Shown: positions 13,801-46,027 of the stretch, one piece after another
How the letters are laid out: each line of letters starts with the position of its first letter
Position numbering within the stretch: position 1 is the stretch's first letter
NCBI GenBank assembly: GCA_964645535.1
Contig: CAZYCQ010000008.1
Span: forward strand, 3,013 to 67,012
Source of the DNA: an uncultured archaeon
GTDB lineage: Archaea; Asgardarchaeota; Heimdallarchaeia; Heimdallarchaeales; Kariarchaeaceae
Reading direction: 5' to 3'
Length of the DNA stretch: 64,000 nt
Notes under the pieces: model-generated
What the model saw: only the letters and a program-made list of their open reading frames with translations
Told to the model about the DNA's origin: nothing
Databases searched by the model: none
Translations under genes and position numbers: made by a program

Positions 13801-14118
13801 AATGTCAGGAGAAAAACCATACAGTGCCTGAAATGCAGCTGCGTCGCGGGCAATCACGACAAATCCACCCGCAGCAATAGATCCGGAAAGGGAAAAGGTA
13901 CCGACATTGTCACTGAGTGTCCATCCGGATAAACTTATGGAAGATCCAGTAGGATTGAATAGTTCAACCCATTCTTCAGTCGCATCCGAATTTGGAGCAT
14001 CATAAAGAACTTCCGTAATGATAATATTTGTGCCAGATGGATTTGCATCAATTGAAAAATGTAACATACTTCCGAAGAGAAGAAGCATTGCAATAGTTAG
14101 TTTTAGAGAAAATCTCAT
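10849..14118 (-). CDS. large secreted multidomain protein: signal peptide, lamin-tail domain (LTD), Ig-like domain, endonuclease/exonuclease/phosphatase (EEP) domain, 4 fibronectin type III repeats, second LTD
   Basis: Signal peptide MRFSLKLTIAMLLLFGSMLHFS.
LTD signatures IIITEVLYDAPNSDATEEWVELFNPTGSSISLSGWTLSD and VVISEVFYDTPGRDSREEWIELYNPTGSTVDLSGWTISD.
EEP motifs IAIFIETG, FAGDLNSF, SDHYAVDV.
Four ~90-aa FN3 units (PPxQVTGL..DLSWTAN..DLDHYNIYRDG..YxYEVSAVDTSGNEG).
SD AAAGGAGAG lies upstream of ATG 14118. Confidence 0.85.
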   Translation of the reverse strand: MRFSLKLTIAMLLLFGSMLHFSIDANPSGTNIIITEVLYDAPNSDATEEWVELFNPTGSSISLSGWTLSDNVGTFSLSGSIAAGGFVVIARDAAAFQALYGFSPDISGSNLALSNSGDQLVLKDGSGNQVDFVAWENYVAGWSVSAKDTTIRRISSTDTDSVSDWENSGTLGDPGAGNYGGSGGDVTPPSVSITSPSAGSTVSGVVTISFTATDANGISSYSLLIDGTQVATSNSYSWDTSLEVDGSHQITARATDPSGNVGEDIISVTVNNANPPPPPSSGAFKIMSYNIEQSGINPDWKQVVKEENPDIAIFIETGTWDDNNDQLLQQYVNEFNAYFTNEAPYVGYVTQGVSFSTSGEAILSRYPVVGVNQFGTVTLDSGASYSVSHDFFDVIVSINGVDTHVIAAHLKCCSGATNEDKRERAMEGVINYMDSLGDVPIVFAGDLNSFSPVDVEDPNLAPQGDLGWGPMTMLIRPTDPTYGQYSSTLHTFVDVFRDLNPTDPGYTYGHQNPTYTSRIDFIVVNQHFNGLLINSTTGDTPTANTGSDHYAVDVFVNPFGGSPDTTPPGQVAGLTATTVSQSQIDLSWTANTEPDLDHYNIYRDGVLIGTSTTNSFSDVGLSSATTYTYEVSAVDTSSNEGLKSAPVSATTGSPDTTPPAQVTGLVANAVGETQVDLSWTANTEADLDHYNIYRDGVLIGTSTVASYSDLGVVATTTYSYEVSAVDTSGNEGLRSAAAVVTTPDLTPPAQVTGLVANAVGETQVDLSWTANTEADLDHYNIYRDGVLVGTSLTASYSDNGLSAKTTYGYEVSAVDTAGNEGQKSTLVSVTTPDLTPPGQVTGLTATAVSQSQIDLSWTANTEPDLDHYNIYRDGVLIGTSTTNSFSDVGLSSATTYTYEVSAVDTSGNEGLRSLMASATTPQPSLNHVVISEVFYDTPGRDSREEWIELYNPTGSTVDLSGWTISDNGGTYTFASGVSIAPGAYLILARSTSGFFNLYGFNPDLGNLNLKLGNRGDLLSLKDASGQEVDFVAWEGKVAGWDIAAPRGSSIARISLNDDTDTVSDWQVLVTETPGSGPTVAAVFISKKQI
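11359..12435 (-). repeat. intragenic tandem FN3-coding repeats with near-identical DNA copies
   Basis: 11762-11880 is identical to 12029-12147 (119 bp, offset 267 bp). About 200 bp at 11411-11612 is near-identical to 12218-12420 (offset 807 bp). At protein level unit 1 resembles unit 4 and unit 2 resembles unit 3. Confidence 0.9.
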
Positions 14119-16216: not shown

Positions 16217-17407
16217 ATGATTCTTACCGCAGGGTCATTAGAAAAACTGATCAAGGAAGGAGAGGTGATCGTTGGGAAAGGAATTATGGAATTGGTGAAT
16301 TTAAAAATAGAAAAAATTGCGGGAAATGCATTCAAGAATTATGGAAACATCAGCACTTTGCGAATTAAAAGATGTGGTTTGAAAGAAATTGACCCTGTGG
16401 CTTTTCGATCACTTAAATCATTGGAAACCCTTGATCTTAGCCATAATGAGATTGAAAGGATTGAAAATGGGACATTTTTGCATTTGGAAGCCCTTGAACA
16501 ATTGGCACTTTACAATAATAAAATCGAAGACATTGAAAAGATGGCTTTTTGGGGAATGTCTACATTAAAGCAACTCTATATTGCCGGAAACAGGATTCGA
16601 ATCATCAAGGAATTGACTTTCCATGAACTTCCTGCACTTGAGGAACTTGATCTTTCGGAAAACAGGATTTCCGTAATAGAACCCAATGCCTTTTCTGAAT
16701 TGCCGTTATTGAGACGTATCAACCTATGGAACAACTCTGTGAAGGAAATCAGGGGAGATGAGTTTAGGTCATTGATTTCACTTGAAGAAATAAATTGGGG
16801 AGAAAATGCAATCAAAGAGCTTTTCCCAAATTGTTTTGAAAAACTTCCAAATCTCAAATGGATAGTCTTGTGGAGAAATAAGTTAGAGGTCGTACCAAGT
16901 GGTACATTTTTGAACCATACCAATCTCCAAGAAATATCCCTTGCAGAAAACAATATCAGGATCATTCATTCAGGAGCATTCAGCAATCTTCCAAAAATTC
17001 AGTTGATCAACCTCAGAGCAAATCCCATCAAGGTTATTGAAGCACAAGCGTTTCAGAATTTGCCAAAACTCCAGTCAATTGATTTTGCGGAAACCCAAAT
17101 AGAGCTGATAGAGGAAAATGCATTTCAGGGGTTAGATACATTGCGGGCGATTGAAATGACCTGCATTCAACTCAGCCCAAATACATTCAGGGATATGCCA
17201 CTATTGCAGACAGTCAGCCTATCAAAAACTAGAATGAACGAGGAGGATCTTGCTTTAGCTTTTGCGGCAGTGGGCTCGAAAAATGAAATCAGAGTTTATA
17301 TTTCCGGAATCAATCATGCCCTGATGAACAATCTGTGCAATCTACTGGGAGTAAATGCACGTTTTCATTCTGCAAGAGCTCGATTTTCATTATTCAGGGG
17401 AATTTGA
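16217..17407 (+). CDS. leucine-rich repeat protein of the 'typical' 24-residue class
   Basis: About 13 consecutive 24-aa repeats LxxLxLxxNxIxxIxxxAFxxLxx, e.g. LKSLETLDLSHNEIERIENGTFLHLEALEQLALYNNKIEDIEKMAFWGMSTLKQLYIAGNRIRIIKELTFHELPALEELDLSENRISVIEPNAF. Confidence 0.85.
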   Translation: MILTAGSLEKLIKEGEVIVGKGIMELVNLKIEKIAGNAFKNYGNISTLRIKRCGLKEIDPVAFRSLKSLETLDLSHNEIERIENGTFLHLEALEQLALYNNKIEDIEKMAFWGMSTLKQLYIAGNRIRIIKELTFHELPALEELDLSENRISVIEPNAFSELPLLRRINLWNNSVKEIRGDEFRSLISLEEINWGENAIKELFPNCFEKLPNLKWIVLWRNKLEVVPSGTFLNHTNLQEISLAENNIRIIHSGAFSNLPKIQLINLRANPIKVIEAQAFQNLPKLQSIDFAETQIELIEENAFQGLDTLRAIEMTCIQLSPNTFRDMPLLQTVSLSKTRMNEEDLALAFAAVGSKNEIRVYISGINHALMNNLCNLLGVNARFHSARARFSLFRGI

Positions 17408-31364: not shown

Positions 31365-32051
31365 ATGAGAAAAGTTAGAGAAGACATGGTCAATCGGGGA
31401 AAATTTTTTCCAATGGCTGAGAAGAAGCTTGAGAACTTCAAATGGAACAATCCACAATTTACGGAGATAATCAGGATAACACCGGAATACTACTCCAAAA
31501 CCAGAATACCATTCGTATTGCGAGTTTTCTTGGCGACCATACTTATTGGAGTGGCGGGAATTCTTGCATGGATAATCTATTTTCTTTTGTCTGATCCGAT
31601 AGCACGATTCTTTGAAAAATTCATCGGTACAGGCTTTTTGTCTTTTGCAATTCTCTTTTTTGGGTTAATTTCATTGTTTATTTTTTCGGACAGTGTTCTT
31701 GTACCCAATATGCTTCAGGCCCTTTTATTTGACAAGAATCGTCTGATCAAATGGAATTGTATATTTGGTGTTTCTTGGGTTAAGTCGTTTGATCTCACAA
31801 ACCTAGATTATTTTGTCAAGAAGGTACTTATCGATGTTGATGAAGATGGTGTGGACGGAAGTTTTGTTATTGAGTTGCATTATGAAAAGGATGAATATGG
31901 AAGAGAAAAGGTCAAAAGGTTGTGGTTAGAAAAACCACGCAATAAGAATGTCATTGAAGAGATTGCCAAATCCCTGAAGGAGGTTGGATTTGAAGTCAAA
32001 GAGCCTTTGGCCTCAAAATTCCTGGATTCCCTAACATCTTTCTCTAGTTGA
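31365..32051 (+). CDS. membrane protein (2-3 TM) with a C-terminal soluble domain, function unknown
   Basis: 228-aa ORF with TMs FVLRVFLATILIGVAGILAWIIYFLL and FLSFAILFFGLISLFIF. The C-terminal domain (LFDKNRLIKWNCIFGVSWVKSFDLTNLDYF...FVIELHYEK...VKRLWLEKPRNKNVIEEIAKSL) is weakly PH-like. Confidence 0.45.
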   Translation: MRKVREDMVNRGKFFPMAEKKLENFKWNNPQFTEIIRITPEYYSKTRIPFVLRVFLATILIGVAGILAWIIYFLLSDPIARFFEKFIGTGFLSFAILFFGLISLFIFSDSVLVPNMLQALLFDKNRLIKWNCIFGVSWVKSFDLTNLDYFVKKVLIDVDEDGVDGSFVIELHYEKDEYGREKVKRLWLEKPRNKNVIEEIAKSLKEVGFEVKEPLASKFLDSLTSFSS

Positions 32052-32089
32052 GGAAATATTGGGAATACCTGCACAGGATACTCGACATT

Positions 32090-32100
32090 GATATAAATGG
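32090..32100 (+). promoter_or_regulatory. TATA-like box (GATATAAATGG) 19-29 nt upstream of ATG 32119; no SD
   Basis: Same spacing as the other candidate promoters in this window. Confidence 0.3.
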
Positions 32101-32118
32101 TAATGAAAGAAAAAATCA

Positions 32119-32892
32119 ATGGATCAATCGGAAAGGAAAATCCTGATGCAAATTGTCATATTGGTTGGAGGCTCTCTCCTTATAGGAATTTTGCTTTTCT
32201 ATAGGTTCCATTTTGTTTTGGACAACCTGTTGGAAATACGAGATTCAGATGTGGTCGGGGCAATTGGAACCATTTATGCACTAATTTCTGCATTTATCCT
32301 AAGCAATGTCTGGTCTAATTTTAAAGAGGCGGAGCAGGCAGTAAGTCAAGAAAATGAGGCGATCATCTCGCTTTGGAATTCTGCGGATTACTTCAATAGT
32401 CTGAAGGAATCAAACAGGATGCGAGCCGTTTTAGTTTCTTATATTGATTCAGTGTTGCGTAATGAATTTCATCATGCACGGAGATTTGAATCGACACTTC
32501 CAGGCAAGGAATTTTTGGGAATACAAAGATTGATCGATTCAATCGAGCTGGATTCGCATAGGGATGAAATTGTGTTTTCCTCCATCATTTCCACCTATGA
32601 AAATCTATCCATTGCAAGAAACAAAAGAATCAACCGAATGGTGGACAGCATGCCCCGGATGCTCAAGATGTTCTATATCATTGCTTCAATCATCCTTTGG
32701 GGTGGGTTTGCCTTTGAAGGGTTCAAAAATCCAATTCTTTACCTTGCCGTCAATTTTGGCATTACTACGATCATTGTTCTCAATTACATGATTATCATTG
32801 ATTTTGACAATCCCCTAGATGGTTTTATCAGAATTAGTTTTGATAGATATATTGCAAGTAGGGATTATATTATCCATGCAATTCATCGATAG
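32119..32892 (+). CDS. DUF4239-like (bestrophin-like) membrane protein
   Basis: 257 aa with an N-terminal TM, then VVGAIGTIYALISAFILSNVWSNFKEAEQAVSQENEAIISLWN and two C-terminal TMs. The layout and motif resemble DUF4239 as I remember it. Confidence 0.45.
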   Translation: MDQSERKILMQIVILVGGSLLIGILLFYRFHFVLDNLLEIRDSDVVGAIGTIYALISAFILSNVWSNFKEAEQAVSQENEAIISLWNSADYFNSLKESNRMRAVLVSYIDSVLRNEFHHARRFESTLPGKEFLGIQRLIDSIELDSHRDEIVFSSIISTYENLSIARNKRINRMVDSMPRMLKMFYIIASIILWGGFAFEGFKNPILYLAVNFGITTIIVLNYMIIIDFDNPLDGFIRISFDRYIASRDYIIHAIHR

Positions 32893-32922: not shown

Positions 32923-34263
32923 TTATTCGGTTTCCGCATGGTTGATAGATCTGACAAAATCATGGAATTTCATGAGTATTTGAACCCCTTGTTCAGAAGA
33001 TTCAATCAAAACTGAATTCATTTTGAAAATGTTTGGCTTCCGTATAATGTATCCATTTTTTGTAAGTGTTTGAATTGTACTTCTGAATTGACCATACCCA
33101 TTTGGGTAGACCCGTTTCAGTTCACTCATTTCAACGGAACCATGGGCATGGATATAGTCCAAAAGAAAAATTTGAGACATTTTCAGGTTCAGTATTTTTT
33201 TCAATTCTTCATTTGTAAGAATGGATGGAACTACCTTTGAATCAGAAACCAATTCAAGGGTTTCTCCCAAAGGATTTTCCAATGCTATAAAATCATTGGC
33301 AAGAATGGCAAAAAGGATGAGAAAGCCGCTGAATAATAGTATTGAATTATTAAGAAAATGATTTGTGGTCTTCAAATATCTATCGATGAGTAATACCAAG
33401 GTCAAGGATGAAAATAGCATCACTATGTCTCTGAAAATCCTATTCTTTCTAATTACCGATAAGGGTTGAGAGATAGACCTGTGCATCTCTTCAATTGATT
33501 TTATTTCTTGGTAGTTCTTCCTGAATTTACCGATGATGAATGAACCGATTATATAGGCAATTACAGGTGAAAAAAGAACAAGTCCGTAAAAAATCATCAT
33601 TTCAATTCCATTGGATTGGGAATATGGTAGGGTGAAAATTATTGTCCAAATCAGAAAGACAAGGTAGAGATTCATCCAAGAACGCCATTCTTCCTCAGTC
33701 GCCAGGGATGAGGCATTCCCTTTGAGAACGGAATAGCAGACAATCAAGATGCAAATAACGGAGTTTATGAGGATTTCAGCCGTAACAAAGAATAGAAGGA
33801 ACATAGTCCATCCCCATGGTCCAAAGGAAAAAAGTGAACCATATTGTGGATCATCAGTCGGAGTAGTTTCATGAAGAATTGGGGCAGAAAGATATCTTTT
33901 CCAATCATGATATGCGACTTTACCGAACCCAAACAGGAAGATGAATGTTGAAATGATAAAAAGAAACAGCCAATATTTCTTTAACACGGCCAATTCGTCA
34001 CTTGGAAGGATTGACAGGTAGTTTCTGTGAGTGAATGAGATCAATTCAAAGGTGAATAAAGTCGCGAAAAAGAAAAAGCAAGAATGGAGGACTAGAAACA
34101 GATAATCAAACAAATGGAAATGATATGTCGGACGAATGATGGAAAGCAATGGAATCCCAAAAACAGTTACAATGAAGTTGAATAAAGCATATCCAATCAA
34201 AGCAGGTCTTTTTGTATTGGTAATTAAGGCAAAATCCATTGTTCCAAGATAAGAAAAACACAA
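32923..34263 (-). CDS. polytopic membrane protein with a C-terminal winged-helix (MarR-like) DNA-binding domain
   Basis: About 330 aa of TM helices, followed by QIFLLDYIHAHGSVEMSELKRVYPNGYGQFRSTIQTLTKNGYIIRKPNIFKMNSVLIESSEQGVQIL (wHTH pattern). Confidence 0.55.
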   Translation of the reverse strand: MCFSYLGTMDFALITNTKRPALIGYALFNFIVTVFGIPLLSIIRPTYHFHLFDYLFLVLHSCFFFFATLFTFELISFTHRNYLSILPSDELAVLKKYWLFLFIISTFIFLFGFGKVAYHDWKRYLSAPILHETTPTDDPQYGSLFSFGPWGWTMFLLFFVTAEILINSVICILIVCYSVLKGNASSLATEEEWRSWMNLYLVFLIWTIIFTLPYSQSNGIEMMIFYGLVLFSPVIAYIIGSFIIGKFRKNYQEIKSIEEMHRSISQPLSVIRKNRIFRDIVMLFSSLTLVLLIDRYLKTTNHFLNNSILLFSGFLILFAILANDFIALENPLGETLELVSDSKVVPSILTNEELKKILNLKMSQIFLLDYIHAHGSVEMSELKRVYPNGYGQFRSTIQTLTKNGYIIRKPNIFKMNSVLIESSEQGVQILMKFHDFVRSINHAETE

Positions 34264-34368
34264 CAGGGTTTTTGGATGTTTTCAACCACTTTTAACCAAT
34301 TGGACAATAATTACAAAACGATAGTGCAACAGCAAATTTTTTGATTACAGATCACAAGAACAACGAAA

Positions 34369-36279
34369 TTATTGCTTCCTTTTATTTCGGATTAGGTTCG
34401 ATATGAAAAGCCCAATCTTTACGCCTATCAATAAGATCGGCACACCAAAAAGGTTGATCAGCCAGAATTGTATCCTTTTTTCATTTTGTAGAGGGTTCAA
34501 CCCCAATTTTGGTTCTAAGGAGTCCTGAATCCCATCTCCATCCGTATCCGCCTTCAAAGGCGAAGTTTTAGACGTTAAAAGTTCATACCCATCAGACCAC
34601 CCATCCCCATCTGTATCATTTATCAAGGGATTTGTAAAGTAAAGCAGAACTTCATCCTTATCCGAAATCCCATCATGATCTGTATCAGGATTTAAAGGAT
34701 CGATACCACGGGAATGTTCGAAGAAATCATCAAGACCATCTTGGTCAGTGTCTGAAGAGTTAAGAAGCAGACCGAGATTAAATTCATCATAATCAGACAA
34801 TCCATCTTGATCGGAATCACTAATGAATGGATTGCTGAATAGCCGATATTCTTTTTGATTGGACAACCCATCACCATCTTCATCTCCTATAGGATTATAG
34901 AGTCTCATGACAAAGGAAATGGGAGTTTCCAGCAAAGAACCATCGCCATTCGGGAAATTGGCTCCAGTTGTCAGTCCAGTTATAAAAACATCATTTTGAT
35001 AGATTTCAAGATTGAATGGTAGATCCACCCCATTTGACCAGAGAAGATTATTGGAGACAGATATTCCAGAAGAGTTCAAGATTAGTAGATAAATGGATGA
35101 AGCATCGTTCGTTTCAAAGCCATAGCCATCATCGGAATTAAATCGAATGTTATTGCTCGAATGACCTAAGATGTAAATTTGATCATTCAAGAAGACGGCA
35201 TCAGAGATGTACTCATCACCAATTGACCCGTATTGGTTGTAATCGATGATATCAAGGGATTTGTTTATTGTGAGCAGATGGATATCAGAATTGGAAGTTG
35301 TTTGTCCATTAGATGGGTTTCTGTTGGAATAAGACAGTAGAATGAGGTTGTCATCGATTTCATCCATCCACATAGGACTGTCCAAGAGAGGAAGGACAGA
35401 TGCATTCTCAAGTGAAACTGAGTTTATGGAAGGGTTATATTCGAAAATGAAATTCTTCAGATCTGTTTGGGAGATGACTGTTGAGTTGGAAAGACCCGTT
35501 AGAATTACTGATTGATTGAAGATAGCGACTTGTTCTATAGAATCGAAACCATCACCCCCTATGAAAGTACTGGTTTTTACATTTCCATCAACGGAAATTG
35601 TTAAAATAAATCCATCCGCACTTCCATTCAGAAAAGTGTCTGTAGGATTTACAAGAGGAAAGTCATCTGAATTGGTGCTGCCAACTATGTGAATTTCTTG
35701 CTTTGTTTCATCAAAAAAGACATCATGAATACTTTCATTCCCGGAACCACCCCAATATGAGCTTTGTGTGATGTTCCCCTCAGAAGATATCTTCGCAAAG
35801 AAAAGATCTGTTCCACCAGAATATGATGAAGAGTTCACAGGAAGGTCAGGCGAGTCTGTGAGTCCGGTAATTAATATAGAGGAATCTGGCAAACCCACTA
35901 CATCAAACAATGTTTCATTCCCGGATCCTCCAAAATACCTGAACCAAGTGAATCTCGTTTTATCGAATTGAGAAATCAGGATATCGAGCCCTCCAGCGAG
36001 AGGTGAAAGAGGAGAAGACCGGATAAAGGAGCCAAAATCCATATGTGTTTCAGGATTATATGTGCCAACGAAAAATTGTGTATCAGGAGAAACATGGTGG
36101 ATGAATGGGATAAAGGGATCGTTCAAAGAATTTGCAAATTCTAGTTTTGAATGGATCGGGAAAAAATCATTTTGAAAAGAGAAAAACGCTTCGTTTCCTC
36201 CATTTTGCCCTTGAACACCAATAGGGAGGAATTGGGAAAAGAAAAGCATCAGAACAAGAACAACAACATACGCTTTCAT
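34369..36279 (-). CDS. anchored surface protein: signal peptide, SBBP-type beta-propeller repeats, thrombospondin type-3-like Ca-binding repeats, C-terminal TM plus basic tail
   Basis: Signal MKAYVVVLVLMLFFSQFLPIGVQG. Repeated GGSGNE..D...D.....I.GST.S.DFPL blocks (SBBP-like). Seven DxDxDGxxDxxE repeats at residues 466-598. C-terminal FWLINLFGVPILLIGVKIGLFISNLIRNKRKQ. Confidence 0.7.
   Translation of the reverse strand: MKAYVVVLVLMLFFSQFLPIGVQGQNGGNEAFFSFQNDFFPIHSKLEFANSLNDPFIPFIHHVSPDTQFFVGTYNPETHMDFGSFIRSSPLSPLAGGLDILISQFDKTRFTWFRYFGGSGNETLFDVVGLPDSSILITGLTDSPDLPVNSSSYSGGTDLFFAKISSEGNITQSSYWGGSGNESIHDVFFDETKQEIHIVGSTNSDDFPLVNPTDTFLNGSADGFILTISVDGNVKTSTFIGGDGFDSIEQVAIFNQSVILTGLSNSTVISQTDLKNFIFEYNPSINSVSLENASVLPLLDSPMWMDEIDDNLILLSYSNRNPSNGQTTSNSDIHLLTINKSLDIIDYNQYGSIGDEYISDAVFLNDQIYILGHSSNNIRFNSDDGYGFETNDASSIYLLILNSSGISVSNNLLWSNGVDLPFNLEIYQNDVFITGLTTGANFPNGDGSLLETPISFVMRLYNPIGDEDGDGLSNQKEYRLFSNPFISDSDQDGLSDYDEFNLGLLLNSSDTDQDGLDDFFEHSRGIDPLNPDTDHDGISDKDEVLLYFTNPLINDTDGDGWSDGYELLTSKTSPLKADTDGDGIQDSLEPKLGLNPLQNEKRIQFWLINLFGVPILLIGVKIGLFISNLIRNKRKQ
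34486..34884 (-). repeat. array of about 7 thrombospondin type-3-like acidic repeats (DxDxDGxxDxxE)
   Basis: DEDGDGLSNQKE, DSDQDGLSDYDE, DTDQDGLDDFFE, DTDHDGISDKDE, DTDGDGWSDGYE, DTDGDGIQDSLE, read directly from the translation. Confidence 0.8.
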
Positions 36280-38067
36280 TCATTGCTCACCTCCCAAAAG
36301 TTTATACTCATCCCAATTTGTACTTACTTTCAATTGACTGTGGAATGGCAGATTGGAACTGAAGAAAAAGAAGCCTTTTGGTGCCTTGATCACATTGAAT
36401 GTTAAAATGAGAAGATGAAGGACGGCAAACACGAAAAAGGAGACCTGCCCAATAAATATCCATAATTGACTACTGCTCATGCTGTTCACCATATTCCAAT
36501 CAGTGCGAATTGCAAAGAATTCAAGAATTGACAACATGACCAAAAATGCATTGGATGCAACCAATACCAACACCTCTAAAAAAAGAACAGAGAGGAAAGT
36601 CATTCGGATGAATCTTAACAAACTTTCTTTGAGATCCAAGAATCCCCTTTCCCGGAACATTTTAAATTCATTTTTCATTCGTTCTTCATCAAACATTGTG
36701 AACAAGGTTCCTTCTTTGAAAACCGTAATAACCCAATTTTTCGTTATTTTTCGAATATGAGAACCCATTAACTTGATGTCTTGAATCATTAGATCATCTT
36801 GGATATAGGTAACATCACGGAAAAAGTATAATAAAATAAAATGAACAACAAATGGAACAAAGGAAAGAAGAAGAGGATAAAGATAGAAATTGGAGAGAAT
36901 CTCCTGTAGGTATAAAAGACCTAAAATCCAAACCCCAGTCAGTAATTGGGTGATGAGAAGAGTACCATACTCTGAAAAATATGTAAGATCAATGATATTC
37001 TCCTTGGGAACATCAGGGGCGGTAATGGTGAATTGAATTTCTTCAGAAGAGAAGTTGAGGTTCCTAAGAAGATCATTCAGGAAATTGGCAAGATTCTTTA
37101 TCATTAAAGGAGGAGTTTGGAAGATAATCGAAGAAGCATCAAAAAAACCGATCCTGATCGTTTCGATGGAATTTTCATATATGGAAAAGGAATTGAGAAT
37201 CACTAAGGTTCCTATTGCTAGAACAACAGACCTAAATGTCAGGTAACTGAGATCGGTAAGATAAAGATAATGTTCATAATGAAAGATCAAAACGAAGAAG
37301 ATAAACAAGAAGAAAGCCCCGAATAAGGCAAAAAGAAAAATAATGGGAGCTAGGATGAATTTAGTCAGAGTGCTGATTCCGTTGAGTATAAGTTCAGAAG
37401 ATTTATTTTTTGAGATTTGGATACCCTGTACACCTTCCTCCAATCGGAGGGAAAATACAGCGGGGTTCTGGCGAATGGAAGGAATTAGGGAAAAAAGCAC
37501 AAGAAGAAGTGAAAGGAAGATAATTGGGTCTTTTAGAACATTCATCGAGAAAGCAATAACATATAGAAAAATTAATCGAAGTATTTTGGAAATTAGTTGA
37601 ATGGTTTCCAATTGGAATTGATCTTCCAATTTTGGATCACGGTATCCATAAAGCATATTTCCCTCAATTATTAGACACATTATCGGTTTCGGCTCAAAAC
37701 TTTGGATTACAATTGTTCCGATTTTTTTATAGAGATAAAAATAAACCACTGAGGAAAGGAGGAATTGAAACAATATAAAATTGGGAAAAACAGGATTGTC
37801 AGTTCCATAAAGAAATGCCATCAATGAATAAAACAATGGTCCGGAAAGATCTGGAGTAATAGTACCGATGATTGAGGCATATGCACTTGATGAATTCAGA
37901 TAGGTTATGAAGATGAGGAATTGTGAGAAAAAAGGCAACATAAGTGCAACAGAACCCAAAATTTTGTTCGAGGCAATGGGTTTGCTATGGTGGTAAATTC
38001 TCCCATCACCTTTAAGGGACAAAGAGATAATGGAGTTTAAAGTCTCAGCAGGGTTCATTTTTGTCAC
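36280..38067 (-). CDS. large polytopic membrane protein (595 aa, at least 12 TM), function unknown
   Basis: The ORF abuts the downstream gene (its stop codon at 36280-36282 directly adjoins ATG 36279) and overlaps the upstream gene by 4 nt. Hydrophobic throughout. No transporter signature recognised. Confidence 0.6.
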   Translation of the reverse strand: MTKMNPAETLNSIISLSLKGDGRIYHHSKPIASNKILGSVALMLPFFSQFLIFITYLNSSSAYASIIGTITPDLSGPLFYSLMAFLYGTDNPVFPNFILFQFLLSSVVYFYLYKKIGTIVIQSFEPKPIMCLIIEGNMLYGYRDPKLEDQFQLETIQLISKILRLIFLYVIAFSMNVLKDPIIFLSLLLVLFSLIPSIRQNPAVFSLRLEEGVQGIQISKNKSSELILNGISTLTKFILAPIIFLFALFGAFFLFIFFVLIFHYEHYLYLTDLSYLTFRSVVLAIGTLVILNSFSIYENSIETIRIGFFDASSIIFQTPPLMIKNLANFLNDLLRNLNFSSEEIQFTITAPDVPKENIIDLTYFSEYGTLLITQLLTGVWILGLLYLQEILSNFYLYPLLLSFVPFVVHFILLYFFRDVTYIQDDLMIQDIKLMGSHIRKITKNWVITVFKEGTLFTMFDEERMKNEFKMFRERGFLDLKESLLRFIRMTFLSVLFLEVLVLVASNAFLVMLSILEFFAIRTDWNMVNSMSSSQLWIFIGQVSFFVFAVLHLLILTFNVIKAPKGFFFFSSNLPFHSQLKVSTNWDEYKLLGGEQ

Positions 38068-38672
38068 TCACCAAGCTTTTCTAACAGAAAACGGACGAGA
38101 TTTTCATCGGGATTGACAATCTTGAATCGAATATTGGAATTGAAGGTCTCGACCTCAATGGTTTTTGCAAATGGATCCAAGAACTTGACAATGGAAACAA
38201 GGAAATTGACAACAGAAATTATTAATTGGCTATCCCCAACCAAAGAGGTGTATGATGTAGGTGTCAAACCAGTCAATAAGAAAATCACTGCGGCAACGAG
38301 CCAAACGATCCTTTTATGACCGCCTCGATACCGAAGACTCATCAGACCTTCGACATTGATTTTCGTGAATCCCTTCACTTGAGAAACGAATTCTTCAAGT
38401 AACGTTCTTGGCATGAAATCCCGAAAAACGACAGAGTTGTCGTCTGCGTAAACCAATTGCTTCCGAAAAGAGTGTAAAGCAAAACCGATCAGAAACGGAA
38501 GCAATACTAGAGCGCTTAAAAAGTCCCTATTGATCAAAAAATAAATAGACGTGACAAGATAGGAGAAGACACTCCCCAAATTGACTTTTTCAGGATTCCA
38601 TTCAAATTCCTCAGCAAGTGGTTCAAGGTGACCTGCCAACAGTTTGGTTTCGTAGTACGTTTCAAAGTTCAT
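38064..38672 (-). CDS. membrane protein (202 aa, about 4 TM), function unknown
   Basis: 4-nt overlaps at both ends (38669-38672 and 38064-38067) indicate translational coupling within the four-gene operon. Confidence 0.55.
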   Translation of the reverse strand: MNFETYYETKLLAGHLEPLAEEFEWNPEKVNLGSVFSYLVTSIYFLINRDFLSALVLLPFLIGFALHSFRKQLVYADDNSVVFRDFMPRTLLEEFVSQVKGFTKINVEGLMSLRYRGGHKRIVWLVAAVIFLLTGLTPTSYTSLVGDSQLIISVVNFLVSIVKFLDPFAKTIEVETFNSNIRFKIVNPDENLVRFLLEKLGE

Positions 38673-41056
38673 TTTAATGGTTTCACCTCCATTTGTTCTA
38701 ATTTCCCAGCCAATTGGTCAAGAAGTCTCTTAAGTAGTTCAATGTTAGAGTTATTTTTATATATTGGATGGGAGGAAATGGTTTCAATGATGCCATACAA
38801 GTTCTTGCATCTTGTGTTCAGGTATTCAGCAGTTGAAATGGAAGCCAACACTTTCAATTGAATGAAATTTTGTTGTATTGGATCATCCATTGGATCGGTC
38901 TGCGTGATTGTTGACATGATGGCAAATGCTGGAAGAAGAGGGAGAAGGATAAGCCAGTGAGGACGGCGATCTTTTATTGAAACAAGTTCAACAATGATTG
39001 ACCGCAATATCCGAATAACCATCTCAGGAGAAAGGGTTTCTGATGCCAAAGCAGACCTCAAAAGAGAAATGGATCGAATTTTGACCGATCGTTTTGTTTT
39101 GATGTGAGGTAGATAGAGATAGTAGTAGAAAATAAACGAGATCAAGATATAACCAATAAATATTAACAGAGGAAAGAATTGCAAATAAATGGAAGTATGA
39201 GGATCCAAAAAGAGGTTCATTTCAAGTCCATCATTGATTGAATCACCATCAGTATCAGGATCCAGAGGATCCAGACCTAAAATGATTTCTTCATTTGAAT
39301 TTAAACCATCATTGTCTGGATCTAAATTACTTGACTTGGGAAATAGATGGAAATTGTTTTCTTCGTTGTCAGGAATGAAATTGATGTTGCAGTCCCTGTT
39401 TAAGTCATTCATTCCCAAATTCAGTTCTTCTTCGAAGGTATATCCATCCTGATCTTTATCAACACCGACATCTGAATAATTGGAAACTCCTCCGAATTGA
39501 AATTCTTGAAGATCCGTAAAGGTATCATTATCGCTATCCAAAAGAGTATCATCACTTTTGAAATAGTTTTCCTGGATTGCCAACAGACCATCCCTGTCTT
39601 GGTCAATAAGAAGCGTATCCGGAATTTGAAATCCCAACAATAAATTTGGAGTAAATTCATAGGGGCGTTCTGTTTTCAGGTCAACAGTAATAGACATGAA
39701 ACCGACAAATTTCAGAGGATTCTCATTCTCAATCGAACGACCAGGAACTTCATTCAGGAATTGAATGAATGAATCATTTGACCAATAGTTAATCACGATT
39801 CCTTCATGATGTGGAATCTCGAATGCATAAGTAACTAAATTACGTGTGAGAACGGTAACTAAAGCAGAATCTGCAATGACTAACTCATTGAAACCATCAT
39901 CATTAATATCAGTTAGAATTAGAGGGGGGGAGGAAATAACAAAATTATTCAGCAATGGAATAGAAAGAAATGTGTGATTGGAAACCAAAAATATTTCATT
40001 TTTTGCAATTACCAAAGTTTCAAGTTCACCACTTCCAGTGAAATAAACATCAGGAATTAATCGATAATTTACCTTCGTTTGAAAAAGAGATCTAATGATT
40101 TGCTCTAACTGAATATTCCGGAAATATGGAATAATTGTTCCATTTGGGAAAAGCATTCCCAATTCAAGCCGTTTATTATTGTCCCTACGAATCAACTGAA
40201 CCAGACGATAATATGAATTCCGATAAAAAAGAGGATCAGACAATATTGTTAGATCCACATATTGATCATAGGTCAAACAGTTCCCTAGTGCAAATTCATT
40301 CAATTCACAGAATAAATAAGTAGGCGGGAGTAGATCCATGTCATTATTAGTGGATGTGTTAAAATAAGCAAATTGCACCAAAAATTTCGGGGTAATGCCA
40401 GGGAAGCCGACTATATTTGTGATATTCGTGGTTAAACCGCCAGTCATTATTGGAGAACTATTCAACAAATTAAGATCATAATCGAAAATCCTAAGAGAAG
40501 AATTTATGTTGACGACGAATTCGGTTGATCCATCGTGATTCAGGTCATTAACCCAAATTTTGTCTGGTGAATTGAAAGATTGTCGGTCTTTTAGAAGAGT
40601 GAAACTGACATTATTTAATTCTGCATCCAATCGTTCATAAACATCAATACCATTGAGGGTGTAGAAAATCCCCAATTGAGATTGACCATTTACAGATATT
40701 GTAAAGAGTTTGTTCTTATCTAGATGAACCTCTGTTGAATTTCTAAGAAATCGCAATTGATAATATCTTGTTTGGAAATATGACTGAAGAATATCATTGT
40801 TTCCAAGAACAAAGATAGGATCATTTTCTGACAAAGTAAAATTGTTAATAAGGGCATTGTTCTCAGGAAATGAAAGATTGTCGGTGTCTGGAAAAAAGAG
40901 ATACTTTTGGACATGGATTTGTTTTTTCCCAAATGAATTGTAATTTTCTGGAAACTGACTTTTGGGAAGAAGAAATGAGGCGTACCCAACAAGGAGTAGG
41001 AGACCAAGGAAAATTGTGGGAAAAACATACCGATTGAGCTTGTAATGACCCATCAT
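38669..41056 (-). CDS. anchored surface protein: N-terminal signal/anchor, large beta-rich ectodomain with FG-GAP/VCBS-like motifs, thrombospondin type-3-like repeats, TM segment and ~150-aa cytoplasmic tail
   Basis: N-terminus YVFPTIFLGLLLLVGYASFLL. FG-GAP-like VNDLNHDGSTEFVVN and TDINDDGFNELVIAD. Acidic repeats DQDRDGLLAIQE, DKDQDGYTFEEE, DPDNDGLNSNEE, DPDTDGDSINDGLE at residues 485-619. TM LQFFPLLIFIGYILISFIFYYYLYL. Confidence 0.65.
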   Translation of the reverse strand: MMGHYKLNRYVFPTIFLGLLLLVGYASFLLPKSQFPENYNSFGKKQIHVQKYLFFPDTDNLSFPENNALINNFTLSENDPIFVLGNNDILQSYFQTRYYQLRFLRNSTEVHLDKNKLFTISVNGQSQLGIFYTLNGIDVYERLDAELNNVSFTLLKDRQSFNSPDKIWVNDLNHDGSTEFVVNINSSLRIFDYDLNLLNSSPIMTGGLTTNITNIVGFPGITPKFLVQFAYFNTSTNNDMDLLPPTYLFCELNEFALGNCLTYDQYVDLTILSDPLFYRNSYYRLVQLIRRDNNKRLELGMLFPNGTIIPYFRNIQLEQIIRSLFQTKVNYRLIPDVYFTGSGELETLVIAKNEIFLVSNHTFLSIPLLNNFVISSPPLILTDINDDGFNELVIADSALVTVLTRNLVTYAFEIPHHEGIVINYWSNDSFIQFLNEVPGRSIENENPLKFVGFMSITVDLKTERPYEFTPNLLLGFQIPDTLLIDQDRDGLLAIQENYFKSDDTLLDSDNDTFTDLQEFQFGGVSNYSDVGVDKDQDGYTFEEELNLGMNDLNRDCNINFIPDNEENNFHLFPKSSNLDPDNDGLNSNEEIILGLDPLDPDTDGDSINDGLEMNLFLDPHTSIYLQFFPLLIFIGYILISFIFYYYLYLPHIKTKRSVKIRSISLLRSALASETLSPEMVIRILRSIIVELVSIKDRRPHWLILLPLLPAFAIMSTITQTDPMDDPIQQNFIQLKVLASISTAEYLNTRCKNLYGIIETISSHPIYKNNSNIELLKRLLDQLAGKLEQMEVKPLK
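39200..39604 (-). repeat. array of thrombospondin type-3-like acidic repeats
   Basis: Repeated D-x-D-x-D-G-x-x-x-x-x-E units read directly from the translation of 38669..41056. Confidence 0.7.
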
Positions 41057-41264
41057 ATTGACAAGAGACAGAATATTAATAAATAAGGTTCATTTGAATT
41101 TTTATTCCTAACCGAAATTTTTTTTACCGAAGTTGAGGAGTTCATCGATCATGAACCATTGAAAGTGATGGAGGTAGTAGATACATAGCTTTAATCCCAT
41201 ATCAAAGTCTTCTATTCGGCGTATTAGAAACAATATTTTATAATGGAGAGGAAGAAGTGAGCTT

Positions 41265-43991
41265 GTGCTATCCAAGACCTACGTGCCTAAAGAATTTGAA
41301 AGTGATATCTACAAGTGGTGGAATGAAAACGGATATTTCAAGCCGGAAACCCTTGTAGAAAAAGGCATCATTCCGAAGGATGCCGAACCCTTCTGCATCA
41401 CCATCCCACCACCCAACGTCACAGGAGTTTTGCACCTCGGTCATGCCATGACCATTGCAATTGAGGATTTGATGATACGGTATGCAAGAATGCAGGGAAA
41501 GAAAGCACTGTTTATCCCGGGATGCGATCATGCAGGAATTGCTACGCAAAATGTGGTGGAACGAGAGCTTTTGAAAAAGGGGATCAGAAGAAAGGAACTG
41601 GGACGTGAAAAATTCTTGGAAGAGGTCTGGAAATGGAAGGAACATTCCCATCGCATTATCACAGAACAATTGATCAAGTTAGGCCTAAGTTCCGACTGGG
41701 ATCGTGAACGTTTTACCATGGATGACATGCTTTCACAGGCAGTCCGAGAGGCATTTGTTACTCTGTATGAACGGGGATTGATTTATAGGGGCAATTATCT
41801 GGTCAACTGGTGTCCGGGACGATGTGAATCTGCAATCTCCGATTTGGAAGCAGAGCCTAAGGAAATTGAAGGGAAACTGTATACAATAAGATACCCGATA
41901 AAAACAGATGAATGGAACGAGCCTAAAGGAGAATGGGGATCCGGCAAGTGGGCTGAAGGTGCAAAGGAATTCATAGAAGTGGCCACAACCAGACCTGAAA
42001 CGTTGTTGGGAGATTCTGCGGTGGCAGTTCCTCCAGGAGGTGGAAAATTTGGGAGTTTTGTTGGCAAAACCGCAATACTACCGGTCTTGGGAAGGGAAAT
42101 TCCAATTATCGAGGATCAGCATGTTGATGCGGAATTTGGAACTGGGGCTGTGAAGGTTACACCTGCACATGACTTCAATGATTATGAAATCGGAAAAAGG
42201 CACAACCTTCCGATGTATTCCATATTTGATGAAAAATCAGTTCTCCTTGAGGAATATGGAGGAAAATATGCTGGGATGGATCGCTTTGAGGCACGTAAGG
42301 CAATTGTGGAAGATCTAAAGAAGGAAGGCCTGCTTGTTAAAGTAGAAGATTATACGCATATGGTTCCCCACTGTCAGAGATGTCATACTATTGTTGAACC
42401 AAGAAATTCCCTTCAATGGTTTGTGAAGACCAAGCCTCTTGCGAAAAAGGTCATCGATCTCATTGAGACGGAAGGAATGGAATTCATTCCGCCAAAAATG
42501 AAAGACCGATTATACCAATGGATCAATCCGGAAACGATACGGGACTGGTGTATTTCCCGCCAGCTTTGGTGGGGACATAGGATACCAATTTGGTACTGCA
42601 ATGACTGTGACGGGGTGACAACAGGAAGAGAAGACCCAACAACCTGTTCCAAATGTGGCGGACCCAACATCTACCAAGAAGAGGATGTTCTTGACACATG
42701 GTTCTCATCAGGTCTTTGGCCATTTTCAACATTGGGATGGCCTCAGGAAACTGAAGATTTCAAGGAATTTTTCCCCAATGACATTAGAGAGACCGGATAT
42801 GACATCATCTTTTTCTGGATTGCAAGGGAACTCATGCTTTCGGCAGAATTGACTGGGCGGCTTCCCTATAAGGTCACCTATTATCATGGCCTCATCAGGG
42901 ATGAGCATGGGAAGAAAATCAGCAAATCCATGGAAAACATAGATGAGTATGATCCTCTCAATTTCATTGAAAAGTTCGGTGCAGACACACTGAGATACAC
43001 ATTGGTCATTTATTCAACCCCTGGTCTTGACACGAATCTTGACCCCAAAAACATTGAGGGGAGCCATAAATTTGGGAATAAGATTTGGCAGGCAGTCAGG
43101 TTCATTTTGGGAAATCTCCAAGAAGATTTCAAATATACACCACCAAAGGCATCAGACAACCTTACGACAGCTGATCGATGGATACTCTATGAAACCAACA
43201 AGATGGTGGAAAGAGTCACAGATTACATGAATGGTTACAATTACCTTGAAGCAGGACGAGAAATCCGTCGTTTCTTCTGGAATCTATTTGCAGACTGGTA
43301 CATTGAGATCAGCAAACTCAGAATCTATGAGAAAAACTACACAGAAATTGACCCAAGACATGTCCTGATCTACACGATCGACAGAATTCTGAGGGTTTTG
43401 CATCCATTCATGCCATTCATGACTGAGAAGCTCTGGCAAGCACTTCCACAAGAGGTTCACGACCAGGAAGCCTTAATGGTTGCCAGATGGCCGAAAATTG
43501 ATAAGGAATTCCTGTCTTTTGATCAAGGAGAACTTTTCGAACGTTTCATGGATACTGTGGGAATGATCAGAAGGATCAGGGGAGAATTCAACATCCCCTA
43601 CAACAAGGACATGACAGTACTGGTTTCTGCTGGCCCTTGGGAAACAGGCTTGCAATCTCTTTCGACGGAGATCAAGAGCCTTACCAAGACAAAAAGGTTA
43701 GAGATCTCAAAGACAATCAATGCACCCAAAAAATCCATTACAGCAGTTACAGGAGACATTACCGTTTACATACCTATGGAAGGACTCATAGAGATTGATG
43801 CAGAAATTGCGAGAATTGACAAAGAATTGCAGAAACTGGAAAAACAGATTGGATCAATTGAAAGGAAGCTTTCATCGGAATTTGCAAAACGAGCACCTCC
43901 TGAATTGGTTGAAAAAGAAAAGAACAAGCTGGAGGAATTGAAGGTGGCAAAATCCGAACTTCAAGGCAAACGGGCACAGCTTTCAGAGTAG
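41265..43991 (+). CDS. valS: valine--tRNA ligase
   Basis: Class I motifs PPPNVTGVLHLGHAM (HIGH) and KISKSMEN (KMSKS). Also the CP1 editing region TRPETLLGDSAVAV and the Zn-type CxxC pairs. C-terminal coiled coil IDKELQKLEKQIGSIERKLSSEFAKRAPPELVEKEKNKLEEL. GTG start. Confidence 0.95.
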   Translation: MLSKTYVPKEFESDIYKWWNENGYFKPETLVEKGIIPKDAEPFCITIPPPNVTGVLHLGHAMTIAIEDLMIRYARMQGKKALFIPGCDHAGIATQNVVERELLKKGIRRKELGREKFLEEVWKWKEHSHRIITEQLIKLGLSSDWDRERFTMDDMLSQAVREAFVTLYERGLIYRGNYLVNWCPGRCESAISDLEAEPKEIEGKLYTIRYPIKTDEWNEPKGEWGSGKWAEGAKEFIEVATTRPETLLGDSAVAVPPGGGKFGSFVGKTAILPVLGREIPIIEDQHVDAEFGTGAVKVTPAHDFNDYEIGKRHNLPMYSIFDEKSVLLEEYGGKYAGMDRFEARKAIVEDLKKEGLLVKVEDYTHMVPHCQRCHTIVEPRNSLQWFVKTKPLAKKVIDLIETEGMEFIPPKMKDRLYQWINPETIRDWCISRQLWWGHRIPIWYCNDCDGVTTGREDPTTCSKCGGPNIYQEEDVLDTWFSSGLWPFSTLGWPQETEDFKEFFPNDIRETGYDIIFFWIARELMLSAELTGRLPYKVTYYHGLIRDEHGKKISKSMENIDEYDPLNFIEKFGADTLRYTLVIYSTPGLDTNLDPKNIEGSHKFGNKIWQAVRFILGNLQEDFKYTPPKASDNLTTADRWILYETNKMVERVTDYMNGYNYLEAGREIRRFFWNLFADWYIEISKLRIYEKNYTEIDPRHVLIYTIDRILRVLHPFMPFMTEKLWQALPQEVHDQEALMVARWPKIDKEFLSFDQGELFERFMDTVGMIRRIRGEFNIPYNKDMTVLVSAGPWETGLQSLSTEIKSLTKTKRLEISKTINAPKKSITAVTGDITVYIPMEGLIEIDAEIARIDKELQKLEKQIGSIERKLSSEFAKRAPPELVEKEKNKLEELKVAKSELQGKRAQLSE

Positions 43992-44021: not shown

Positions 44022-44942
44022 ATGGATAGGGCAATTGCTCAAGCACCTGCAACAATTGCAAATGTCTGTGTTGGTTTCGACATTCTTGGCTTTGCAGTCC
44101 CTATTCTGAAGGACACAGTCATTGTTTCGAAAGCAAGTGAAGGGGTAGTTATCAAGAAAGTTGTTGGAATGAATCTGCCCACAGAAGCTAGGGAAAATAC
44201 CGCGGGTCGTGGTCTCCAAAAAATGATTGAAGTGCTTGATCTCCCATTTGGGTTCGAGGTTGAAGTCAAAAAAGGAATACCTTTGGGTTCAGGTCTCGGC
44301 GGATCGGCAGCTTCGGCAGTAGCTTCCGTGGTAGCTGCAAATGCACTTCTGGATCGCCCTCTGCCAAAGGATGAGTTATTTCAATTTGCATTGGTTGGAG
44401 AGAGTGCAGCTACAGGTGGAGTTGTGCATGGAGATAATGTTGCAGCAGCCTTGTTGGGAGGATTGACCATGTGCCTCCGTCCAAAAAGCGAAGATAAAGA
44501 CTTAACTGCTTTCTCTCTTCCAATACCAGATATCCATTGTGTCATAGTTCATCCGGATCAAGTAATAGAAACAAAAGAAGCACGGAAAATACTTGCAGAG
44601 CAGATTCCCCTCAAAGATCACGTCAATCAATCCATGAGATTGGCCGCATTCATGATGGCGATTTTTACAGAAGACCTTACCCTTCTGGGCAATTTTTTTG
44701 AGGACATCGTGATCGAGCCGCAAAGGGCATCACTGATTCCTTCCTTTTACAAATTAAAGGAAGTAGCAGTACGAAATGGGGCACTTGGATTTTCAATTGC
44801 AGGAGCAGGTCCTACAATGTTTGGATGGTATCGAACCTCAGAACAGGCACAAAAAACTCGACAATTGTTTGAAAATATGGGGTTTCAATCATGGACTTGC
44901 CAAATCGACAGGCAGGGAGCAACAGTCATTCATTCAGAATAG
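44022..44942 (+). CDS. thrB: homoserine kinase
   Basis: GHMP kinase motif KKGIPLGSGLGGSAASAVASVVAAN. N-terminus APATIANVCVGFDILGFAV. About 306 aa. Confidence 0.9.
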   Translation: MDRAIAQAPATIANVCVGFDILGFAVPILKDTVIVSKASEGVVIKKVVGMNLPTEARENTAGRGLQKMIEVLDLPFGFEVEVKKGIPLGSGLGGSAASAVASVVAANALLDRPLPKDELFQFALVGESAATGGVVHGDNVAAALLGGLTMCLRPKSEDKDLTAFSLPIPDIHCVIVHPDQVIETKEARKILAEQIPLKDHVNQSMRLAAFMMAIFTEDLTLLGNFFEDIVIEPQRASLIPSFYKLKEVAVRNGALGFSIAGAGPTMFGWYRTSEQAQKTRQLFENMGFQSWTCQIDRQGATVIHSE

Positions 44943-46027
44943 TTGGTTATCACCAAATGTGTAGCCCCCCGGTCATTACGACCCCTGACATTGTAAGCGT
45001 ATTTTTTGGGATATTTACGGATAGATATGTTGGGATTGATCTGCTTGGCACGTTCATAGACTTTGGTGATGAATTGGCTGTTTCCAATCACCATCATTGC
45101 CTTTGACTCCAACTTGGCAAAGGCATGGACAAGATCCAGATGGTTGCTTTTTCCAAATGGAGTCTGTCCATACTCTGTGAAATCAGAATCATAAGGGGGA
45201 TCAAAAAACACAAAATCCTCGGAAGTTGGTTTTACCTTTTCAATGAATTTGAGATAATCGGAATTGTGGATTGTGGTCTGAGAAAGAAGTTTCACTGTCT
45301 TTGGGGATTGGAGAAGTTCTACTTTGGTACGGAAGGATTTGCGGTTGTAGGCGATACCGCCATAGGGAATATTAAATTTCCCTCGAGAATTGTATCGAAA
45401 CATCGAACCAAACGCAAATTCCCGAATAAAGAAGAAAACCGCAATTGGGTGGAGATTTTGAGGGGGCGCATCTCGAAGCATTGTGTAGTAGGCGGCACGA
45501 ATAGCCGTTTCAACATGATCCCGATAGGTCCAGCGGTCGGTCATTGGCCGTCCATGTTTGCTTTCCAACTGCGAAATGCGAATTATTTTGGAACGAAATG
45601 AGTTGATAAGGAAAGGTGACAATGAAGATGGGAGATCTAAAGATTGGACTTCCAAGATACCCTCTCTTAGATGAACCTTTTCTAGGTCACCCAATGTAGG
45701 GGGTACACCTGTTTCCAAGTTTCGTTTTTTTAATTCAAGAAATGGATCCAAAAAAGGGGTGATCAGATCTTTCAGAAGTTCCCAGTCTTCAGCAATCTGA
45801 TTAAGACTGTCAAGGAAGGCCTCATCTTGTTTTTGAACAAGCAGATAGAATTGCATCAAATCTTGATTGATGTCATTGATTGCATTGTTACGATGCTCAA
45901 GATGGAAAAAAAGGGCACCACCCCCTACAAATGGCTCAATGTACCTGTCAAAATCCTGTGGAATTAAGCCATCAATATTTTTGATTTCACGGCTTTTGCC
46001 ACCAGGCCATTTGATCAGGGGTTTCAC
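44930..46027 (-). CDS. D12-class N6-adenine DNA methyltransferase (Dam-like)
   Basis: N-terminal KWPGGKSREI, SAM motif YIEPFVGGGALFFHL and catalytic motif IV VFFDPPY. At 365 aa it is longer than the classic Dam size as I recall it. No adjacent restriction endonuclease gene. Confidence 0.85.
   Translation of the reverse strand: MKPLIKWPGGKSREIKNIDGLIPQDFDRYIEPFVGGGALFFHLEHRNNAINDINQDLMQFYLLVQKQDEAFLDSLNQIAEDWELLKDLITPFLDPFLELKKRNLETGVPPTLGDLEKVHLREGILEVQSLDLPSSLSPFLINSFRSKIIRISQLESKHGRPMTDRWTYRDHVETAIRAAYYTMLRDAPPQNLHPIAVFFFIREFAFGSMFRYNSRGKFNIPYGGIAYNRKSFRTKVELLQSPKTVKLLSQTTIHNSDYLKFIEKVKPTSEDFVFFDPPYDSDFTEYGQTPFGKSNHLDLVHAFAKLESKAMMVIGNSQFITKVYERAKQINPNISIRKYPKKYAYNVRGRNDRGATHLVITNYSE

Follow-up and report, generated by a model that had tools for sequence, protein, structure and literature searches.

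The 64,000-nucleotide (nt) stretch of DNA analysed here (the window) is part of contig CAZYCQ010000008.1 of an uncultured archaeon and contains, on its minus strand, four closely packed genes (A to D) that encode two anchored surface proteins and, between them, two polytopic membrane proteins. The block is best explained as an operon for the cell surface that is specific to one species of Heimdall-type Asgard archaeon and belongs to the flexible part of its genome, a reading to which a probability of roughly 0.55 is assigned. It is carried by the surface location of proteins A and D, the Ca-binding type of their repeats, the propeller identity of the protein D head, the topology of the encoded proteins and the lack of conservation of the block. 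The four genes, and the region that separates them from the divergent gene for valyl-tRNA synthetase (ValRS), are arranged as follows (lengths in amino acids, aa).

38669-41056, minus strand: gene A, 795 aa (open reading frame listing)
38064-38672, minus strand: gene B, 202 aa (open reading frame listing)
36280-38067, minus strand: gene C, 595 aa from a GTG start (open reading frame listing), or 592 aa if the ATG at 38058 is used
34369-36279, minus strand: gene D, 636 aa (open reading frame listing)
41057-41264, no strand: divergent intergenic region between gene A and the ValRS gene (sequence inspection)

Genes A to D form a real, tightly packed and translationally coupled four-gene operon. 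A first-pass annotation of the sequence had described four minus-strand genes joined by two 4-nt overlaps and one direct abutment, and both the positions and the junction sequences bear this out. Genes A and B share an ATGA overlap with a Shine-Dalgarno-like element, GGAGGTGA, 10 nt upstream, and the same GGAGGTGA is found upstream of the TGAATG abutment of genes C and D. The junction of genes B and C is a GTGA overlap; an alternative ATG lies 9 nt further downstream with the Shine-Dalgarno-like GGTGA before it, and this is the start chosen in one gene call of the shorter, 592-aa protein (P0001). Gene A has no Shine-Dalgarno element. Instead, an A/T-rich TATA-like sequence, TTATTTATTAATATT, is located ~19-33 nt upstream of its ATG, and this resembles a conserved TATA-like element ahead of the divergent ValRS gene. 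The latter element is also A/T-rich (TTAGAAAyAATATTTTATAATG), lies 20-43 nt 5' of the ValRS GTG and is common to the window and the two closest relatives found, L002 and L025.

41222-41245 of the window, ~1795-1820 of L002 and ~905-930 of L025: conserved ValRS element (three-genome comparison)

The conserved ValRS-upstream element is likely to be a promoter composed of a transcription factor B recognition element (BRE) and a TATA box, and the similar element ahead of gene A would act as a promoter in the same manner. Transcription would then start at the TATA-like box just upstream of gene A, with the downstream genes translated from their Shine-Dalgarno sites. A leaderless first gene followed by genes with Shine-Dalgarno leaders is a common pattern in archaeal operons.

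The best defined of the four products is protein D, which consists of a globular head, a repetitive stalk and a membrane anchor.

aa 1-24: signal peptide
34885-36207, minus strand (aa 25-465): SBBP β-propeller head
34513-34884, minus strand (aa 466-589): six canonical TSP3_bac repeats
34396-34464, minus strand (aa 606-628): transmembrane (TM) helix, then a short basic tail

The stalk contains six strict DxDxDGxxDxxE motifs that recur every 22-23 aa, and these match Pfam TSP3_bac (PF18884) in 6 stretches with 67.1 bits (cut-off 25 bits, E=1.1e-18). The acidic repeats of Ca-binding type that the earlier reading had placed directly before the TM helix are thus confirmed. The head had been described as SBBP-like, which also stands; it scores 22.4 bits against Pfam SBBP (PF06739, cut-off 20.5) and has 29 homologues, most of which carry a precomputed PF06739 assignment. 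The best of these gives E=1.5e-34, and none exceeds 33% identity over ~39% of the head. In the PDB the head matches designer six-blade propellers (E=8.8e-7), and a profile built from its family matches the CylK chain (7fh7) with E=1e-47. The blade period of ~60 aa is visible even in the DNA, as repeat D2. CylK is therefore a solved relative of the protein D propeller; a CylK-like enzyme activity of protein D is unsupported by the sequence. The C-terminus is a plain TM helix followed by RNKRKQ, and no model of an archaeosortase or PGF-CTERM-type sorting signal is found among the NCBIfam matches. The same style of anchor, a C-terminal TM helix and a KLKKQKI tail, occurs in a 1671-aa protein encoded near ValRS in L025 (4781-9796, minus strand), in which subtilase-like active-site motifs can be recognized by eye.

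The sequence places protein D, as a new member, among the already known SBBP plus TSP3_bac surface proteins (PF06739 with PF18884; for example P0008 on L032), with which it shares an identical head-plus-stalk architecture. It differs from those proteins in its type-I anchorage by a C-terminal TM helix and in being encoded in an operon with three orphans. On the MAG contig L032 (4323-9847) the gene for an SBBP plus TSP3 protein of 768 aa directly follows those for a PadR regulator, a polytopic membrane protein of 638 aa and a membrane protein of 207 aa; this neighbourhood is analogous to the block in the window but has no sequence similarity to it. The neighbours of the nearest SBBP homologues (L031 and L032) include no relatives of proteins A, B or C, nor of the product of gene E, the downstream neighbour of gene D that is described below.

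Proteins A and D have several surface traits in common. Both begin with an N-terminal hydrophobic leader, and in both the repeat array is immediately followed by a TM helix. Their ectodomains are acidic, with isoelectric points (pI) of 4.6 and 4.1, and contain 1.76 and 1.89 N-x-S/T sequons per 100 aa, compared with ~0.3 for most genes of the window, which fits exposed archaeal glycoproteins. The earlier statement that the two outer proteins are secreted or anchored is upheld; A and D are extracytoplasmic, type-I anchored, acidic, sequon-rich proteins with a head carried on a DxDxDG stalk of Ca-binding type. The stalk and TM regions of the two proteins align with 35% identity over 151 aa (BLASTP, E=2e-12), so that they represent a paralogous stalk-and-anchor module. 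The identification of the repeats as thrombospondin type-3 does not survive in its eukaryotic sense. The eukaryotic TSP_3 profile (PF02412) is absent among the matches at E<=1 for the whole of proteins A and D and at E<=10 for the repeat arrays, and the prokaryotic TSP3_bac type is the only one that the arrays match in Pfam.

Protein A is larger than protein D and is less readily assigned.

aa 11-30: leader or anchor
aa 31-484 (454 aa): head, β-rich, acidic and sequon-rich
40505-40558 and 39869-39922, minus strand: two DxNxDG loops in the head
39221-39604, minus strand (aa 485-612): ~5 degenerate TSP3 repeats
39122-39184, minus strand (aa 625-645): TM helix
38672-39121, minus strand: basic tail of 150 aa

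A repeat array is present in protein A as had been claimed, but its ~5 copies are degenerate and reach only 13.4 bits (E=0.074) against Pfam TSP3_bac; their support comes from the NCBIfam model of MtsD (E=2.2e-7) and from the alignment with the protein D stalk. The cytoplasmic tail of about 150 residues after the TM helix is confirmed. For the 454-aa head no significant family match was found. The FG-GAP-like strings noted in the first-pass annotation do exist, but they remain below the Pfam gathering thresholds, at 16.3 bits for FG-GAP_3 (cut-off 26.9) and 14.2 bits for FG-GAP (cut-off 22.1), and the FG-GAP search with the whole protein gives E=0.51. Protein A resembles integrin alpha and other FG-GAP proteins (PF01839, PF13517) in its DxNxDG loops, its β-rich ectodomain, its type-I anchor and its tail, and differs from them in having two motifs in ~450 aa rather than the seven-blade pattern, and in the sub-threshold scores. 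The label 'integrin-alpha-like' rested on these two sub-threshold motifs and is not retained; the likeness is a lead rather than a result. An AlphaFold2 single-sequence model of the ectodomain was mostly β, with a predicted local distance difference test (pLDDT) score of 33, and was not used. The head was also considered as a divergent SBBP propeller, and this was rejected (hhalign E=0.62).

Arrays of DxDxDGxxDxxE repeats like those of proteins A and D are found in Myxococcus surface proteins implicated in cohesion or adhesion, namely MtsC and MtsD (cell-cell cohesion; for MtsC see PMC11980579) and CglD (gliding adhesion). Matches of the window proteins to the three models (NF047638, NF047639 and NF033765) are confined to the repeats and reach 19-45 bits, where the equivalog cut-offs are 350-800 bits; they do not signify membership. 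Proteins A and D also differ from the Myxococcus proteins in having no MYXO-CTERM and in their different heads.

The two middle genes encode membrane proteins, the topology of which was deduced from hydropathy and the positive-inside rule.

Gene B: 4 TM helices, N-in/C-in; TM2 and TM3 are linked by a basic loop of 53 aa in the cytoplasm
Gene C: 10 TM helices, N-in/C-in, with all large loops cytoplasmic
36283-36975, minus strand: C-terminal 4-TM module of gene C
36640-36708, minus strand: conserved loop motif FxxFDEERMKNEFKMFRERG in gene C

The four helices previously counted in protein B are confirmed by hydropathy, whereas the figure of at least 12 for protein C is revised to 10. Lysine and arginine residues are strongly partitioned, with 17 inside and 1 outside in protein B, and 36 in the inside loops and 2 outside in protein C. 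The cytoplasmic loops of protein C comprise 43, 37, 73 and 73 aa, and its predicted external loops only 4, 12, 4 and 16 aa, together with one of 35 aa that is charge-free. In both proteins nearly all of the hydrophilic part is on the cytoplasmic side. Such a topology fits proteins that would contact partners within the membrane or in the cytoplasm.

Protein C has no Pfam or NCBIfam match at E<=1, no PDB sequence match at E<=10 and no PHROG or PADLOC match, and its two halves gave a single noise match at E<=10 in the profile search. No significant match to Pfam, NCBIfam, PHROG, PADLOC or the PDB was found for protein B; two NCBIfam matches are at chance level, one of them to the Tet(46) A ABC efflux subunit (E=0.12, 10.9 vs 1250 bits). 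The earlier observation that the middle proteins have no recognizable transporter motif is therefore borne out, as neither matches a transporter or glycosyltransferase family in Pfam, NCBIfam or the PDB sequences. The sole relative of protein C is P0003, a protein of 230 aa that covers aa 370-580 with E=3.1e-12 (HMMER, 1.84 billion representatives). The module of protein C and this stand-alone protein, which is encoded in a hydrothermal metagenome (L030, 210-902), share a charged and strongly conserved cytoplasmic loop, FxxFDEER[MF]KxEFK[MI]FRERG, and by sequence are a tiny uncharacterised family of membrane proteins. The contig of P0003 is 1.2 kb long and is uninformative on gene context. Paralogy of protein B with the protein C module or with P0003 is unsupported (BLASTP E=1.2 and 0.32, hhalign E=0.083), as is an internal duplication within protein C (E=0.2).

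The position of two polytopic proteins between two sequon-rich secreted proteins could also suggest that B and C act in the modification or export of A and D, as a divergent transporter or flippase or as an enzyme of glycan processing. Wzy-like and GT-C-like enzymes have often diverged so far that profile searches miss them, and this counts in favour of such a role. Enzymes of the GT-C, oligosaccharyltransferase (OST) and Wzy types work on the outer face of the membrane, however, and the small external loops of B and C argue against outer-face enzymes of these kinds. As no match to Pfam, NCBIfam or the PDB sequences was obtained up to E=10, and no nucleotide-binding partner is encoded nearby, a role in maturation or export is considered unlikely.

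Downstream of the operon, on the same strand, lies a further gene for a membrane protein.

32923-34263, minus strand: gene E, with 8 TM helices and then a winged helix at the C-terminus; 446 aa, or 438 aa if the ATG at 34239 is the start
32926-33285, minus strand: MarR-like winged helix of gene E, cytoplasmic

Its lysine and arginine residues are distributed 28 inside and 5 outside. The C-terminus of protein E matches the NCBIfam MarR model PRK11512 with E=2.8e-5 (24 vs 240 bits), scores 14.2 bits against Pfam MarR (cut-off 24.6) and matches several winged helix-turn-helix families at E=0.004-0.07, so that protein E is a putative membrane-tethered transcription factor. Gene E follows gene D at a distance of 105-129 nt and is without a Shine-Dalgarno element; because of this gap and the missing element it may be transcribed separately, from its own promoter.

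The presence of this gene raises the question of outside-in sensing, in which A and D would sense a ligand or a contact, and the signal would pass through B, C and the tail of A to the product of gene E, which would alter transcription. Consistent with such a path, gene E (8 TM helices plus winged helix-turn-helix) shares both the strand and the indel block of the operon, B and C have their loops in the cytoplasm, and the analogous, non-homologous neighbourhood at L032 likewise places a PadR gene and polytopic proteins beside an SBBP plus TSP3 protein. However, no recognizable signalling domain is found in any of the proteins, the winged helix-turn-helix assignment of gene E is weak, being below threshold in Pfam, and the L032 proteins have no detectable similarity to B, C or E. 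Together with the possibly separate transcription of gene E, these points make a sensing pathway quite unlikely.

The host was assigned from the genes that surround the block. ValRS, encoded next to the block, has 83% and 79% identity to that of two Candidatus Heimdallarchaeota metagenome-assembled genomes (MAGs) and 63% to that of a Kariarchaeota MAG, and together with the shared synteny and the shared archaeal TATA element this supports the Asgard-type host that the earlier reading had envisaged. In assembly GCA_003696825.1 the genes correspond to RMG37319-RMG37321 and the adjacent D6732_07075, all annotated as 'hypothetical' under the label of a Euryarchaeota/Methanobacteriota archaeon. The closest relative, L002, is syntenic with the window, with EndoDU, a bestrophin-like protein (73% identity), a protein like the 228-aa membrane protein of the window (36%), ValRS (83%) and homoserine kinase (57%). 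The 8.1-kb block 32923-41056, comprising genes A to E, is missing at this syntenic locus. In the second relative, L025, no trace of gene A is found upstream of ValRS, and the DNA similarity of the three genomes in this region stops ~45 nt before the ValRS start codon. The genes for the 228-aa membrane protein and the bestrophin-like protein occur in swapped order in the window (31365-32892) and in L002 (338-1786). This, combined with the 36% identity of the former where its neighbours reach 73-83%, suggests a local rearrangement or the replacement of a paralogue next to the indel.

The individual proteins are equally restricted. Among 5.8 billion proteins protein A has no homologue besides itself in a word-indexed search, and protein C has no relative; a viral scan with protein A was without a match, and metagenome pattern scans with protein B and with the protein C-module alignment found no relative. 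Conservation of synteny across related genomes had been set beforehand as a check on the proposed unit, and the result goes against it, with the block missing at the locus of the nearest relative and proteins A and C being essentially orphans. The composition of the block is native, both in GC and in GC at third codon positions (GC3, 0.32-0.44, inside the range of the window). No tRNA, flanking repeats or Rfam element was found in the block as a sign of mobility, nor any phage, plasmid or PHROG match, and PADLOC gave only a non-significant match (E=0.021); judged by these features it is not a recognizable mobile element. In its presence or absence, its surface glycoproteins, its orphans and its native composition the block is similar to the cell-surface islands of flexible genomes, on the basis of the two relatives compared.

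For the species-specific surface operon the following arrangement can be proposed. On the cell surface, A and D would serve in binding or adhesion and be stabilised by Ca, and B and C would form a membrane-embedded partner for them. This partner may be in contact with the TM helices and with the tail of 150 aa that protein A has in the cytoplasm, and it would fall outside the known transporter and glycosyltransferase families. The block, and with it the adjacent gene E, would belong to the variable genome, as cell-surface islands often do. The first-pass annotation had gone further and suggested a dedicated envelope complex. Such a complex may exist in this one organism, but comparison with other genomes lends it no support; as far as the sequences compared here go, nothing equivalent to the whole operon has been described, and as a system it too is without comparative support.

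Several points weigh against the surface-operon reading. Co-transcription of genes A to D is deduced from their spacing alone, and the binding function, the Ca occupancy and the existence of a physical complex are read from sequence. Both of the AlphaFold2 single-sequence models, that of protein C (pLDDT 39) and that of protein A (pLDDT 33), were unusable. Protein A was searched by a word-indexed method and protein B by pattern scan and exact lookup, so that very distant relatives of either could be missed. Finally, the synteny is taken from two close relatives with contigs of 7.4 and 10.5 kb, and because these contigs are short the block may sit elsewhere in the two genomes in a form that is not recognizable.

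The absence of the block from the nearest relative at an otherwise conserved locus, the orphan sequences and the surface exposure would also be expected of a polymorphic locus for self/non-self recognition or virus interaction, held under diversifying selection in the manner of TraA/TraB or of phage-receptor islands. Allelic variants were not found, however, and the likeness to TraA/TraB is limited to the type of repeat, TraB presumably carrying TSP3-type repeats, so that a locus of this kind appears distinctly improbable. TraA/TraB is the kin-recognition system of Myxococcus (PMC12045341, PMC6372800).

The stronger form of the earlier proposal was a conserved Asgard envelope machine, in which an integrin-alpha-like receptor and a thrombospondin-like protein would be coupled to a membrane complex and serve Ca-dependent adhesion or contact between cells. 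It draws on the coupling of the operon, the Ca-binding repeats, the Asgard host and the long cytoplasmic tail of protein A, as well as on the two DxNxDG loops, which have flanking hydrophobic strands and weak matches to two FG-GAP models. Set against this, the FG-GAP scores are below their thresholds, the repeats are TSP3_bac and not eukaryotic TSP_3, proteins A and C have no homologues in other genomes, and the closest relatives do not have the block. Such a machine is accordingly rated as very improbable. Less credible again, and the most novel of the readings, is an integrin-like unit for outside-in adhesion and signalling invented within the Asgard archaea, with protein A, on its Ca stalk and with its long cytoplasmic tail, as a propeller receptor and protein D as its propeller co-receptor, which would act through B and C on gene E and so lead from contact to transcription.

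The cell surfaces of Asgard archaea are of interest, as contact with a partner features in models of eukaryote origin, and an adhesion machine of integrin or thrombospondin type, if conserved in these organisms, would be notable. A search of the literature on TSP3 or FG-GAP in Asgard archaea, and on the assembly accession, found nothing relevant. The evidence points to something more ordinary, with one recognizable prokaryotic surface protein, a degenerate stalk paralogue and orphan membrane proteins in a single lineage. The species-specific surface operon thus offers an example of the flexible-genome surface content of a Heimdall-type archaeon and a caution that DxDxDG repeats should not be read as eukaryote-like.

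Some other features of the window may be mentioned. In a pattern-based search with biased sampling, the best matches of ValRS (41265-43991, plus strand) are in the Heimdall and Kari MAGs (60-83% identity) and the next-best in Chloroflexota/Anaerolineae (51-58%), which suggests a bacterial-type ValRS in an Asgard lineage. An acidic protein of 1089 aa (pI 4.1), encoded at 10849-14118 on the minus strand, contains two Lamin Tail Domains together with fn3, Big_7 and Exo_endo_phos domains. Leucine-rich repeat (LRR) proteins are encoded at 6884-8065 (minus strand) and 16217-17407 (plus strand), with matches to LRR_8 of E=8.6e-21 and 7.2e-84, and the second of these also matches the BspA-type LRR_5. 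At 44930-46027 on the minus strand lies the gene for a Dam-like N6-adenine methyltransferase of the D12 class; it runs towards the gene for homoserine kinase, and the ends of the two overlap by 13 nt.

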